From Myxococcota bacterium (GTDB lineage: Bacteria; Myxococcota_A; UBA796; CAJQPC01), in contig DASCPX010000137.1 in NCBI GenBank assembly GCA_036012755.1, positions 64,001 through 128,000 on the forward strand: a stretch of 64,000 nt of DNA, read 5' to 3'. Position 1 is the first letter of the stretch. Each line of letters opens with the position of its first letter. The position numbers are program-made. Positions 33,001-36,000 of this stretch are shown here, piece after piece.

Positions 33001-36000
33001 CGACGAGGCCCTCGACCGCTGCCGTGGGCGGGACCCCCGATCCAGACGCTGGTACGTCGCCTATCATGGCGAGATCGTTGGACCCGTGCAGCTGGCTGAG
33101 CTGCCAGACGACCTCGACGCGCTCGTCTGCTTCGAGCGCTCCGGGTGGGTCAAACGCTCACACCTGCTCTGAGTCGACCCGGAGGTTCAAGAGCTCGTGG
33201 AAGGCCTGCGGGCCCAGGAGCTTGCCGCTGGAGTAGCCGGTGGAGTCCTTGATGATGGGCTTCTTGAGGTCGTAGCGCCGGATGACGGCGTCGCTGGGCG
33301 CCGGGGCCGCGTCCCAGGCTGGAGCAACCTCGTGCGCCAACTCACGATTATCGCTCAGGTTGTTGCTGTTCTGCAGGACGATTCCGCTGCACTCCAGCCG
33401 ACTCCTGATGCGCCCCTTGTACTGGCCCTTCTTGCCCTTGAGCGCCTTGTGGTCCCCGAACCGGACGGTGCCCTCGACGTCGCTCCACGGCGCGACCCGA
33501 ACCCGGCAGACCCCGCTGTTCTTGCCCTCCTGGATCCGGTGCAGCCCGGCCTCGAGACGCAACAGGCCCGCGGCGTAGCGTCCCTTGATCGCGAGCATCG
33601 CCGGCTCGTCACTCCGCATCGGCTCCCGCAGCCAGTCGACCTCCATCTTGCGTGAGTCCGCCCAGGCGAGGAGCTGCTCGACGACGAGGTCTCGGGCGCG
33701 TCGCGCGCCGGCGCCCAGAGGCCGGACCTCCACCAGCGCGTCCCATGCGCCCTCGAAGCCCATGAGGAGCAGCTCCCGCCTCGCCCGAGCGAGGGCTCGC
33801 TCGTGACGCAGCAGGTCGTGGGCGACGCGCTCGAGCGCTGCCCGACCGGTCTTGCGGGCCTCTGTCTGCAGCGACTCGTTCCATCCCCTCAGCCGCTCCA
33901 GGCGGTCGACCACGCTCGCTAGCCGGTCGAGGTCCCGAAGCACCTTGGCCGCGGTCTCCGGCTTGCTCCAGAACTCCCTGTGGCCACGCCGCTCGTCGAG
34001 CTTCGTGCGCTGCTCTCCGATCGCCTCTTCGTCCACCTCTGCGGCGAGCGCTTCGATGGCCCCGGCGGCAGCCTCCAGCCGCCTTCCGAGCTCGGGCCGG
34101 GTGAGCTTCTGGCCCTCTGCCTTGACCGGAGCCGCGGCCGCGCGCCGCTGGCGGATCTCCTCGGTCTCCAGGAGGCGCACGCGGATGTGCCCGTCCTTGG
34201 CGTGGATCTTGACGATGCTGCCGGGCTCCACGCTGCGTTCCATCATCGTCATCGCCAGCGGCAGCACGAGCTGGCGCTGGATCTCCCGCTTGAGCGCTCG
34301 GGCGCCGTACTTGGGCTCGAAGCCCGTCTCGATGACGCGGTCGAGGGCGTCGTCCGTGACCTCCACCACGAGGTTCCGGCCGGCGATGCCCTCGCGCGCG
34401 AGGATGCGTCTCAGCTCCCAGCGGGCCACCTGCTTCACCTGCTCCTTGCTGAGCGGGTGGAAGACCACCACGTGCTGGAAGCGGTTGAGGAACTCCGGTC
34501 GGAAGTGGTTCTCGAGGGCCTTCGTCACGGCGTGGCGGCGAGCCGACAGCCCGGTGTCCGGGGTGAACCCGAAGCTCTTGTCGCTGCCCTGGGCGCCCAC
34601 GTTGCTCGTGGTGATGAGGATCGTGCTGCGGAAGTCGACCGTCTTGCCGCCCGGAGGCGTCATGCGGCCCTCGTCGAGCACGCCGAGCAGCAGGTCCCAG
34701 ACGTTGCTGTGGGCCTTCTCGAGTTCGTCGAGGAGCAGGACCTGGAAGGGCTGGGCGCGCACCGGGTCGACCAGCGCCGCGGGTCGGCCAGGGTCCTTGG
34801 GGTTGCCGACGAGCATCTCGAAGGAGTGGTAGTCCTTGAACTCCGAGAGGTCGAAGCGAAGCAGCCGCGACTCGGAGCCGTAGAGGAAGCGCGCGAGCGC
34901 CCTGGCGACCTCGGTCTTGCCGACCCCCGTCGGGCCGACGAAGAGGAAGGTCCCGATGGGCTTGTCAGGGTCGTGGAGTCCCGCCTTGAACAGCGCGATG
35001 GCCTCTACGACGGCCTCGAGAGCCTCGCGCTGACCCACGATGCGCTCCTCGAACCAGGCGCGGATCTCCTTCGCGGGCATGGTCGCCGTGCGGCTGACCA
35101 CGAAGAGGGGGAGCCCGCTGTAGACCGAGAAGACACGCTCGATGAGCTGCGGACCAAAGACCGCCTCCTCGCCGGCAGAGGCCTTCTCTACCTGGTAGTC
35201 CCGGACCTGCTCCAGCAGCTCCAGCGCTGGTCCGGGCTGGGGCCGTGAGGGCAGGAACCTGGTCGTGAGCTGGATGAGCGTGCTGCGGCAGTCACCGTCG
35301 AGCACGACGCCGCCGCGCTCGGCGGCTCGGTCCAGGCAGGCCCTGACCGACTCGACGGCCAGCGGTCCGACGTTGACCTTCGTGAAGAGCGAGACGAAGC
35401 CGGGGTGCCGCTCCATGAGACGCAGGGTCTCCGGGGTCGCCTCCGCCAGCAGCGTCAGCCCCTTGCCCTGGATGTGGGGCCTGAGGGCGTCCAGCAGGTT
35501 GTTGTCGCTCTGGGCCGTGCGGCCGGTCTTGGGCAGGTTCCAGGCGTCGCTGAAGTACAGCACGGTCTGGAAGTCGACGGCCTTCTTGGCGATGGTGGTG
35601 ACCTTCGACTGCCACTCGCCCAGGTACTTCGTGCCCGACATCATGGCGGTGCTCGAGAGCTCGACGAGGTCGCCGCCGCCCTTCGCCATGCGCTGGGCGA
35701 CGGCGTGCACGACAGCGGTCTTCCCGACCCCGGACGGGCCGACGAGCAGCACGCTCTTCTTACGCTCGAGCAGCTCGGCGACCTGCTTCACTAGCTCGTC
35801 GCGGAAGTCGACGGGCGGGAGCTCCCCGTCCCGCGCCGCGTCCACCAGGTCACGCCCGTCTTCGGCGAGGGCGTTGTCGTAGTCCGTGTCCATGACTGGC
35901 CGTGGAGGATACTCCGACACATGGGTTCGAGCTTCGGCCGGTTGTTCCGCGTCACTACCTTCGGTGAGTCACACACCGGCGGCCTCGGCGCCGTGGTGGA

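Follow-up and report, generated by a model that had tools for sequence, protein, structure and literature searches.

The gene at 33158..35893 on the minus strand of the 64,000-nucleotide stretch of Myxococcota DNA analysed here (the window) encodes a 911-residue protein in which two Clp/Hsp100 AAA+ modules and a D2-small domain are joined by a flexible linker to a C-terminal module related to peptide release factor 2 (RF2). It represents a family of bacterial fusions, termed Clp-RF2 below, that is conserved yet unstudied, and a full-text literature search turned up no description of such a protein. As a whole, the findings are best explained, tentatively, by a dead RF2 module that would address a Clp motor to the ribosome for the extraction of a bound polypeptide. 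To our knowledge, a ribosome-targeted Clp protease acting as a rescue or turnover factor is not known in bacteria.

The coding sequence, 911 codons plus a stop codon at 33158-33160, opens with ATG. A GTG at position 35920 offers an alternative start and the stop-to-stop frame spans 936 residues; the homologues start at the same methionine in the alignment. All features described here lie on the minus strand. From the N-terminus, Pfam and alignment place the first AAA+ module (D1) at residues 31-250 (35144..35803) and the large part of the second (D2) at residues 285-480 (34454..35041), followed by the ClpB_D2-small domain at residues 481-563 (Pfam; 34205..34453). A linker occupies residues 564-598 (34100..34204), where model confidence (pLDDT) falls to 53-68 and to below 50 at 585-587, and the RF2-like module takes up the remaining 313 residues, 599-911 (33161..34099). 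The Pfam matches underlying this layout, namely AAA at 48-144, AAA_2 at 311-474 (E 1.9e-42), ClpB_D2-small at 481-563 and PCRF at 628-788, are those on which the initial annotation had based its claim of a Clp double ATPase fused to a release-factor-like module, and that architecture stands. Its caveat that residues 260-480 fold with low confidence no longer applies to most of this segment, with 260-430 now at pLDDT 82-93 in a whole-protein model built from a 32-row alignment (mean pLDDT 87.3). Only two segments of the model fall below 50, the linker at 585-587 and a loop in D2 discussed below. Four relatives have long open frames upstream, which were considered as N-terminal extensions and rejected as stop-free high-GC DNA; none encodes an extra Pfam domain, two being without a match and two having only AAA-type matches at the start of D1.

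The homology of the C-terminal module to RF2 extends across all four release factor domains and is supported by Pfam, phmmer, profile and fold. The PCRF match lies above the Pfam cut-off (E 2.2e-8, 34.6 bits against 24, model positions 4-176 of 194), and the gene scores 38.6 bits with this family in a genome-wide search. A phmmer search with the last 321 residues ranks RF2 first among PDB chains (E 6.1e-7, RF2 residues 18-202), in agreement with the relationship first proposed, and when a profile built from 26 modules was searched against the PDB, its match spanned the whole of RF2 (E 3.7e-27). The RF2-type F-W motif of domain 1 is retained, W642 (residue 52 of the 321-residue piece) being the same in all 26 rows. 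By contrast with these searches, the RF-1 family model (PF00472) gives the fusion gene no match at E <=0.01 in a genome search in which RF1, RF2 and an ArfB-like gene, all three with GGQ, are found; homology of the part corresponding to the GGQ domain is visible by profile and fold only. The prfB model likewise gives the fusion 43.6 bits against a cut-off of 370. A model of the C-terminal module built from 26 rows has a mean pLDDT of 95.1 and a pTM of 0.91. As the initial annotation had reported, all rows listed among the 50 best Foldseek matches in the PDB are RF2, RF1 or mitochondrial release factor chains (best E 4.1e-15). The fold aligns with free RF2 (1gqe) at Z 25.4 and an rmsd of 4.2 Å over 304 residues, and the next-best matches are compact, pre-accommodated RF2 on the 70S ribosome (Z 22.5 and 21.2).

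What distinguishes the module from RF2, apart from being joined to an ATPase, is the loss of both functional motifs and a shortening around domain 3. At residues 788-794 (33512..33532; alignment and profile) the stop-codon loop is 8 residues shorter than in the genome's own RF1 and RF2, the SPF and the residues behind it being missing. The stop-codon tripeptide had thus been noted correctly as gone; its loop is deleted with nothing codon-specific in its stead, and the further description of the module as an A-site decoder is not supported. GGQ occurs nowhere in the 911-residue protein, again as first noted, and its place is taken by a basic beta-hairpin at residues 816-835 (33389..33448; alignment, profile and model) with K-G-Q (822-824) at its tip. 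The 26-module profile places the family's xGQ on the GGQ of RF2 and so bears out an alignment originally made by eye. The accompanying proposal that GGQ had changed to xGQ holds in part: GGQ is absent from all 114 family rows and the first position is Gly in just one, and Gln is kept in only 50, being otherwise L, A, R, T, H, E, V and others. Similarly, G823 and Q824, described as invariant, are so in 10 of 10 close relatives; family-wide the second Gly is kept in 102 of the 114 rows, and for Gln the lower count just given applies. Among family-specific motifs the basic hairpin is the best conserved, [RK]-A-L-K-x-x-G-x-[LYF]-G-G-[RK]-[VIL]-R-S-R. Around domain 3 the module is 7, 6 and 18 residues shorter than the genome's own RF2, the 7 and the 18 falling in the two connections of that domain. 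To judge from these sequence features, the module can neither decode stop codons nor release peptide. Its predicted shape is compact, as in free or pre-accommodated RF2, and since the domain-3 connections are also shortened it is doubtful that the modelled module could extend to both the decoding and the peptidyl-transferase centre at once.

The Clp part is best explained as a hexamer-type Clp/Hsp100 ATPase with a ClpA-like layout. Its alignment with ClpA runs uninterrupted from query residues 16-562 to ClpA 176-732, and because query residue 16 already aligns with ClpA 176, the protein begins at D1 and has no N domain; Clp_N is not among the best 25 of the 53 Pfam families matched by the 911-residue protein. 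The middle domain is also missing, ClpB residues 390-526 remaining unmatched where the query has about 20 residues. The fusion therefore differs from ClpA and ClpC in lacking the N domain and the ClpC-type middle domain, and from ClpB and Hsp104 in lacking the N and middle coiled-coil domains. Structurally the full model is closest to ClpC chains from ClpC-ClpP complexes and to ClpB chains, and in sequence D2 is nearest to ClpB (1qvr, E 2e-90; TIGR03346, E 8e-105). The fusion falls far short of the thresholds of both families, scoring 299 bits where the NCBIfam ClpA model requires 993 and 351.9 where ClpB requires 1232.

Alignment of 32 full-length relatives reveals an uneven split of motifs between the two rings, a feature that the initial annotation had overlooked. 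The Walker A Lys is present in 28 of 32 relatives in D1 and 30 of 32 in D2. Within D1 the pore loop (residues 87-95, G-T-K-Y-L-G-E-W-Q; 35609..35635) keeps its aromatic, Tyr90 here, in 30 of 32. In the D1 Walker B (residues 112-118; 35540..35560) 31 of 32 relatives retain the Asp, and the residue that follows is Glu in none. The ClpB stretch E-R-R-F-Q, whose two Arg we take to be the Arg fingers, aligns with V-S-L-F-T, so that the finger pair is lost. In D2 the reverse applies. The ATPase motifs are intact, with the Walker B Asp-Glu in 30 of 32 relatives, and the pore-loop segment (residues 363-374; 34772..34807) is shorter than in ClpB and ClpA, with an aromatic in 1 of 32; the column of the pore-loop Tyr (G-Y-V-G type) is a gap against ClpB and against the genome's own ClpA and ClpB. 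Given that the P-loop and pore-loop Tyr are kept and the catalytic Glu and Arg fingers are lost, ring 1 reads as a nucleotide-binding ring that would grip without hydrolysing. This is an unusual motor, in which the aromatic pore loop is retained in the catalytically depleted ring and missing from the ring with the catalytic residues. A ring that has the ATPase motifs and no pore-loop aromatic is odd for a threading motor and speaks against polypeptide extraction as proposed here.

A second feature overlooked at first is a conserved x-G-F loop in D2. The flexible loop at residues 437-447 (34553..34585; alignment and full model), disordered in the full model, carries F-G-F (441-443), a tripeptide of the hydrophobic-Gly-Phe/Leu type that the ClpP partners ClpA, ClpC and ClpX have on a flexible loop of their last AAA+ module. 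An x-G-F is found in 13 of 13 family rows at the L-G-F column of the genome's own ClpA-like protein, a column that is a gap in its own ClpB. Across the relatives the Gly of the [FILV]-G-F loop is universal (32 of 32), the Phe is present in 31 and a hydrophobic residue precedes them in 29. This conservation at the ClpA-like column suggests that the protein probably docks on ClpP. When three copies of the genome's own ClpP were predicted in complex with D2 residues 280-480 the outcome lent docking weak support, with a score of 0.40 against 0.02 for the best of three controls; the runs share at least 51% of contacts and partner pLDDT is at least 70. Of the solved complexes, 116 out of 157 attain the passing mark, as do 2 out of 215 mismatched pairs, and passing scores of 0.60 or under comprise only 18 of the 157 solved complexes, yet both of the passing mismatches. 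The pass may also merely mirror likeness to Clp ATPase-ClpP complexes that have already been solved. Taken together we regard coupling of the fusion to ClpP as somewhat probable. Since the loop points to ClpP docking, proteolysis rather than mere pulling would be the expected outcome.

The fusion is widespread and patchy. When 401 genomes were sampled across the phylum, 26 were found to encode it (E <=1e-20), consistent with the rarity seen earlier (11 of 201); within the window's own family 6 of 12 genomes do. Clustering at 50% identity gives about 30 full-length clusters. The cultured Oligoflexus tunisiensis, where the protein is named 'AAA family ATPase', is among the carriers, and since the fusion is maintained across these clusters the module is evidently under selection. 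A scan of contigs for relatives, using patterns from the Clp part, recovered 80 loci, most of them ordinary ClpA, ClpB or ClpC and four covering the whole protein; the same architecture is present in 20 other genomes. A stand-alone form of the RF-like module was not established in a representative search. Many short matches are contig-end fragments, because they start inside the D2 or D2-small region; one 364-residue candidate stand-alone form (P0132) is encoded on a contig of 2,058 bases. All-against-all BLAST of open reading frames at 21 loci, the window and 20 relatives, revealed no conserved neighbour, only the gene itself and its shadow frames being shared. In the 20 relatives the flanks are varied, mostly metabolic or housekeeping genes (Pfam, 83 flanking frames), and genes for translation or ribosome rescue are not conserved beside the fusion. 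Co-occurrence with RqcH was considered and rejected: no RqcH (NFACT_N) was found in the 12 genomes of the window's own family, six of which have the fusion gene; the sister family has RqcH in 13 of 14 genomes, with or without the fusion, so that RqcH follows taxonomy rather than the fusion. Among 20 runs listed as containing the stretch, all are marine and seawater DNA and none is RNA.

These observations allow a tentative molecular model for Clp-RF2. With no recognition domain at its N-terminus, the protein has in the RF2-like module its sole candidate for target choice, and because this module neither reads a stop codon nor hydrolyses peptidyl-tRNA it would serve as an address label rather than as a release factor. 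The dead module would take the machine to the release-factor site of ribosomes or large subunits with an empty A site. The motor would then extract a ribosome-bound polypeptide, whether nascent chain, bound factor or ribosomal protein, and probably hand it to ClpP. Targeting to the ribosome is proposed from the descent of the module, by homology, and we consider it slightly less likely than not. The compact shape is one known to sit on ribosomes, as pre-accommodated 70S-bound RF2 is among the best structural matches. The best-conserved family-specific motif, the basic hairpin, moreover stands at the place of the GGQ loop, which in genuine release factors contacts rRNA and tRNA. With the codon-reading loop gone and both domain-3 connections shortened, the canonical open pose spanning the A site is doubtful. 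Several further points speak against ribosome targeting. No translation or rescue gene is linked to the fusion gene, and its presence is independent of RqcH. Substrates of Clp ATPases enter at D1 and the C-terminus lies on the D2/ClpP side of the ring; by this geometry the RF2-like module would hang from the side opposite to substrate entry. A parallel in eukaryotic ribosome quality control is Vms1/ANKZF1, a release-factor-like protein with a non-GGQ loop that works with the two-ring AAA+ ATPase Cdc48/p97 on stalled large subunits (PMC6514570). The likeness is one of analogy only. Vms1 is of the archaeo-eukaryotic eRF1 type, unrelated to bacterial release factors, and catalytically active, unlike the module described here; it recruits Cdc48 through a motif rather than by fusion, and no proteasome-like ClpP docking loop is present. 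That the fusion is a convergent bacterial counterpart of Vms1-Cdc48, docked on ClpP and parked at the factor site of empty-A-site ribosomes or 50S subunits to extract and destroy stuck material independently of RqcH, is a rather unlikely elaboration of this model.

Alternatively, the module may act off the ribosome as an RNA- or protein-binding adaptor that brings an RNA-protein complex or free protein to the motor, its release factor ancestry being a matter of history. A precedent exists in land-plant chloroplasts, where PrfB3, an RF2 paralogue without SPF and GGQ, binds mRNA and protects petB transcripts (PMC5897788). As a dead RF2 copy working on mRNA away from the ribosome, PrfB3 also weighs, by analogy, against ribosome targeting of Clp-RF2. 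Both are RF2-derived, have lost the decoding and catalytic motifs and have been put to another use, in the case of PrfB3 as described in PMC5897788; PrfB3 differs in being eukaryotic and organellar, a stand-alone protector of mRNA 3' ends with no ATPase. The motif losses in the two are probably independent. In a protein-atlas feature search the chloroplast PrfB3 cluster is the second neighbour of the module (score 0.88), which by the rule of the tool is a lead only. An adaptor of this kind would also be compatible with the loss of both release factor motifs, the compact predicted shape, the basic hairpin where the GGQ loop was and the lack of linkage to translation genes. However, the four-domain release factor layout, including the F-W motif, has been kept across wide divergence, and a plain RNA binder would need less; nor is any candidate ligand off the ribosome in sight. 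We consider an off-ribosome role possible, if on the unlikely side.

A role in conflict or defence appears improbable. Here the dead RF2, coupled to an AAA+ effector, would lure or detect phage or toxin factors directed against termination, acting as a decoy or sensor, and the patchy presence of the gene, both in the window's family and across the phylum sample, fits such a role. In the window a Septu-like PtuA/PtuB remnant adjoins the gene just downstream on the same strand, and D2 matches Clp-like ATPases of PADLOC candidate systems (PDC-M37B, E 1.4e-30, and DolB), over the generic AAA module only. The RF part, however, is covered by no PADLOC model, and a tblastn search with the module matched none of 72,556 plasmid or 50,697 phage records. 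The lack of a conserved partner gene across the 21 loci and the mostly metabolic and housekeeping flanks of the other 20 also argue against defence.

An ArfB-type role, in which the module would still hydrolyse peptidyl-tRNA independently of stop codons by means of xGQ, is very improbable. In its favour, the 10 closest sequences all have the Gln and the second Gly, and G-Q is positioned at the hairpin tip. Release factor catalysis needs both glycines, however, and in the family the first is all but absent, GGQ never occurs and fewer than half of the rows keep Gln; the genome moreover encodes three proteins that do carry GGQ, namely RF1, RF2 and one that is ArfB-like. Finally, an assembly artefact or decaying pseudogene, conceivable in a draft genome of 250 contigs, is refuted by independent full-length homologues in the clusters and genomes described above, a cultured species included, and by a frame open without stops with high-confidence full and partial models.

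In Clp/Hsp100 machines, targets are selected by N-terminal domains or by adaptor proteins. In Clp-RF2 this selection seems to have shifted to the C-terminus, where a domain derived from a translation factor has been put to new use. Should the module still go to ribosomes, Clp-RF2 would be the first AAA+ protease of bacteria with a direct connection to the A site, and would provide a testable form of ribosome-linked protein extraction without tmRNA tagging or RqcH tailing. If it does not, Clp-RF2 would stand beside plant PrfB3 as a bacterial case of a repurposed release factor. In either case the family is widespread enough for study.

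The Clp-RF gene opens with an ATG and runs for 911 codons (window 33158-35893, minus strand), and its homologues start at the same Met; an alternative GTG start lies 27 bases 5' of this ATG, which is not preceded by a clear Shine-Dalgarno sequence. The gene stands back to back with a divergent chorismate synthase gene (window 35893-35923). Their ATGs, at 35893 and 35921, have 27 bases between them, which places each promoter inside the other gene, and the alternative GTG adjoins the chorismate synthase ATG. Directly downstream of the Clp-RF gene on the same strand is a Septu-like defence remnant (30485-31957, minus), comprising a PtuA match (30890-31957, minus; E 3.4e-83, only profile positions 167-382 of 424) and a PtuB fragment (30485-30889, minus; E 7e-8, positions 125-189 of 198). 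As the PtuA reading frame goes on upstream beyond a single stop (31958-31960), PtuA may be truncated or broken. A 1,416-codon frame (26012-30262, plus) has no Pfam or PADLOC match and overlaps a 1,015-codon frame of the opposite strand.

The fusion of a Clp ATPase to a release-factor-like tail, described in the initial annotation, is confirmed. All of its Pfam domains were recovered (AAA, residues 48-144; AAA_2, 311-474; ClpB_D2-small, 481-563; PCRF, 628-788, with 34.6 bits where the cut-off is 24), RF2 chains again head the PDB matches of the last 321 residues (E 6.1e-7) and GGQ is, as had been stated, absent throughout the protein. NCBIfam matches to ClpB, ClpA, ClpK, ClpG and ClpV, and to prfB at residues 610-787, are partial and sub-threshold. 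The model of the whole protein, folded with 32 rows, has a mean pLDDT of 87.3 and a pTM of 0.56, falls below pLDDT 50 only in the x-G-F loop (residues 437-447) and at linker residues 585-587, and finds its best structural matches in ClpC chains of ClpC-ClpP complexes and in ClpB chains.

The motor aligns continuously with ClpA (query 16-562 to ClpA 176-732) and leaves the ClpB middle domain (ClpB 390-526) unmatched, which indicates a ClpA-like layout without N domain and without middle domain. Despite this layout, the second AAA+ module (D2, residues 285-480) is nearest in sequence to ClpB and ClpC. Across 32 full-length relatives, the first AAA+ module (D1, residues 31-250) keeps the Walker-A Lys in 28, the pore-loop aromatic in 30 and the Walker-B Asp in 31, followed by Glu in none (0/32); D1 V-S-L-F-T is the aligned counterpart of ClpB E-R-R-F-Q, whose two Arg we take to be Arg fingers. 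D2 retains both the Walker-A Lys and the Walker-B Asp-Glu in 30/32, while its pore loop is shorter than the ClpA and ClpB counterparts and carries the aromatic in a single relative (1/32).

When the family was aligned with the source genome's own ClpA-like and ClpB proteins, x-G-F fell at the L-G-F column of the ClpA-like protein in all aligned members, distant HEAT/TPR-extended ones included, a column at which the genome's own ClpB has a gap. The loop (F-G-F at 441-443) has Gly in 32/32, Phe in 31/32 and a preceding hydrophobic residue in 29/32, and the tripeptide is presumably a ClpP-docking motif. A predicted complex between three copies of the genome's own ClpP and D2 (residues 280-480) gives weak support, scoring 0.40 against 0.02 for the best of three controls, a score that may only show likeness to solved complexes of this kind. 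In the tool's calibration, 116 of 157 solved complexes and 2 of 215 mismatches passed this mark; scores of 0.60 or less account for just 18 of the passing complexes and for both of the mismatches. Agreement between the runs covers 51% of contacts or more, and partner pLDDT is 70 or above. Coupling of the Clp-RF protein to ClpP is on balance favoured. The genome's own ClpP (locus L012, 1477-2049, minus strand, on contig C189 of G000; 190 aa from the first ATG) is the single clear one in a 96%-complete draft, and its N-terminal stretch we take to be short and unusual-looking beside other ClpPs. Contig C102 has a second, weak CLP_protease match (25.5 bits) within an 838-codon frame.

The C-terminal module (residues 599-911) is related to RF2 over the whole length of that factor. 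When 26 modules are combined into a profile, its positions 7-306 align with RF2 3-349, the entire factor, at E 3.7e-27, and the match to RF1 is weaker (E 7e-16). The Pfam RF-1 model gives no match to the module at E <= 0.01 in a search that finds the genome's own RF1, RF2 and ArfB-like genes; one distant fused fragment has a sub-threshold RF-1 match. Release-factor chains make up all the listed rows of the 50 best Foldseek PDB matches to the module model (mean pLDDT 95.1, pTM 0.91). VIA-align ranks free, closed RF2 first (1gqe; Z 25.4, rmsd 4.2 Å, 304 residues) and compact RF2 from 70S complexes in pre-accommodated states next (Z 22.5 and 21.2), and open, accommodated forms reach Z 15-18.5, at 8-9 Å rmsd or over domains 2/4 only. 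Compared with the genome's own RF2, the module is shorter by 8 residues at the SPF loop, by 7 ahead of domain 3, by 6 inside it, and by 18 in the long helix and switch region that follows, the helix region being longer in more distant fused relatives. The deletions before and behind domain 3 shorten both of its tethers and, since the model is also compact, an open pose reaching from decoding centre to peptidyl-transferase centre appears doubtful. The genome's own prfB (locus L002, contig C27 of G000) is an RF2 frame without an in-frame start ahead of the conserved N-terminus; prfB usually carries a programmed +1 frameshift, which would fit.

On the demonstrated anatomy of motor and module, and on the family and its context, we infer a mode of action. 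With the N domain missing, the RF2-derived module would be the only visible target selector. To our knowledge the ribosomal factor/A site is the only thing that release factors of this fold bind as a whole, and compact RF2 is transiently present there, so the Clp-RF protein may be read as a ribosome-addressed unfoldase. It would be directed to ribosomes, or to large subunits, whose A site is vacant and would probably feed ClpP, the module serving as an address label, neither decoder nor hydrolase. Ribosome targeting is put forward tentatively. Several points speak against this reading: the position of the module at the C-terminus, on the ClpP side of the ring, a D2 pore loop devoid of its aromatic, the trimmed domain 3 tethers, the absence of linked translation genes, and the precedent of PrfB3, a dead RF2 copy acting on mRNA off the ribosome according to passages of PMC5897788. 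The module as an off-ribosome adaptor is a somewhat less probable alternative.

Across 21 loci no conserved neighbour gene was found, the flanking genes being mixed housekeeping. The module had no match on plasmids or phages, and a conflict or decoy protein is an improbable reading. Co-occurrence with RqcH was rejected, as RqcH tracks taxonomy. The gene for BipA/TypA, a ribosome-binding GTPase, lies 4 kb away (39782-41614, minus) and is not kept as a neighbour in the other loci. An ABC-F type protein (ABC_tran and ABC_tran_Xtn; locus L139, 6352-8163, plus), of a class of ribosome-binding factors, adjoins the Clp-RF gene in only 1/20 loci.

The element replacing the GGQ loop is a predicted basic beta-hairpin with the tip G-Q-Y-K-G; the profile alignment sets the family's xGQ on GGQ and R-S-R on RF2 D-S-A. 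Among 118 rows covering it, four are ordinary release factors with GGQ. GGQ occurs in none of the other 114, which have Gly at the first position in 1, the second Gly in 102 and Gln in 50 (26 of 59 rows of full-length proteins). Flanking [RK]-A-L-K and G-G-[RK]-x-R-S-R are much better conserved than this Gln, R-S-R having its first Arg in 112, Ser in 108 and its second Arg in 98 of all 118 rows. The module is a dead RF2 derivative, its domains complete but trimmed, and a still-active hydrolase is very improbable.

A word-indexed search found 11 relatives with 43-78% identity in the module, and 124 matches, 76 of them below 1e-10, came from searching 1.84 billion representatives exhaustively. 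About 30 representative matches are full-length (880-965 aa); many short ones start within the D2/D2-small region, which marks them as fragments. Weaker matches are Clp-PCRF fusions with N-terminal HEAT (P0105, 1,304 aa) or TPR repeats (P0119, 1,404 aa), and P0110, a distant fusion of 1,040 aa, has an N-terminal extension without assigned domain. In all three the x-G-F loop is kept and the RF helix region is longer; they may represent older forms of this machine or forms addressed to other targets. Relatives are annotated at source as 'AAA family ATPase', 'AAA domain-containing protein' or 'ClpC', and one comes from the cultured Oligoflexus tunisiensis. In the window's phylum, 26 of 401 sampled genomes have a module match at E <= 1e-20, among them 6 of the 12 genomes of the window's own family, source genome counted. 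Of the weaker matches, two that lie in long frames probably represent distant members, and the remaining 11 are ordinary RF2 genes. That a fusion so distributed is an artefact has a negligible probability.

Full-text searching, with partial coverage of the literature, returned no description of a Clp-RF fusion, and 'Clp' is absent from the main text and one supplementary file of a survey of release-factor evolution (PMC6514570). For the proposed function, eukaryotic Vms1 with Cdc48, as treated in passages of PMC6514570, is the nearest analogy. The Clp-RF protein is Clp/Hsp100 by membership, yet is none of ClpA, ClpB and ClpC, and its tail, though homologous to RF2, is no release factor. The architecture is real, conserved and unusual.
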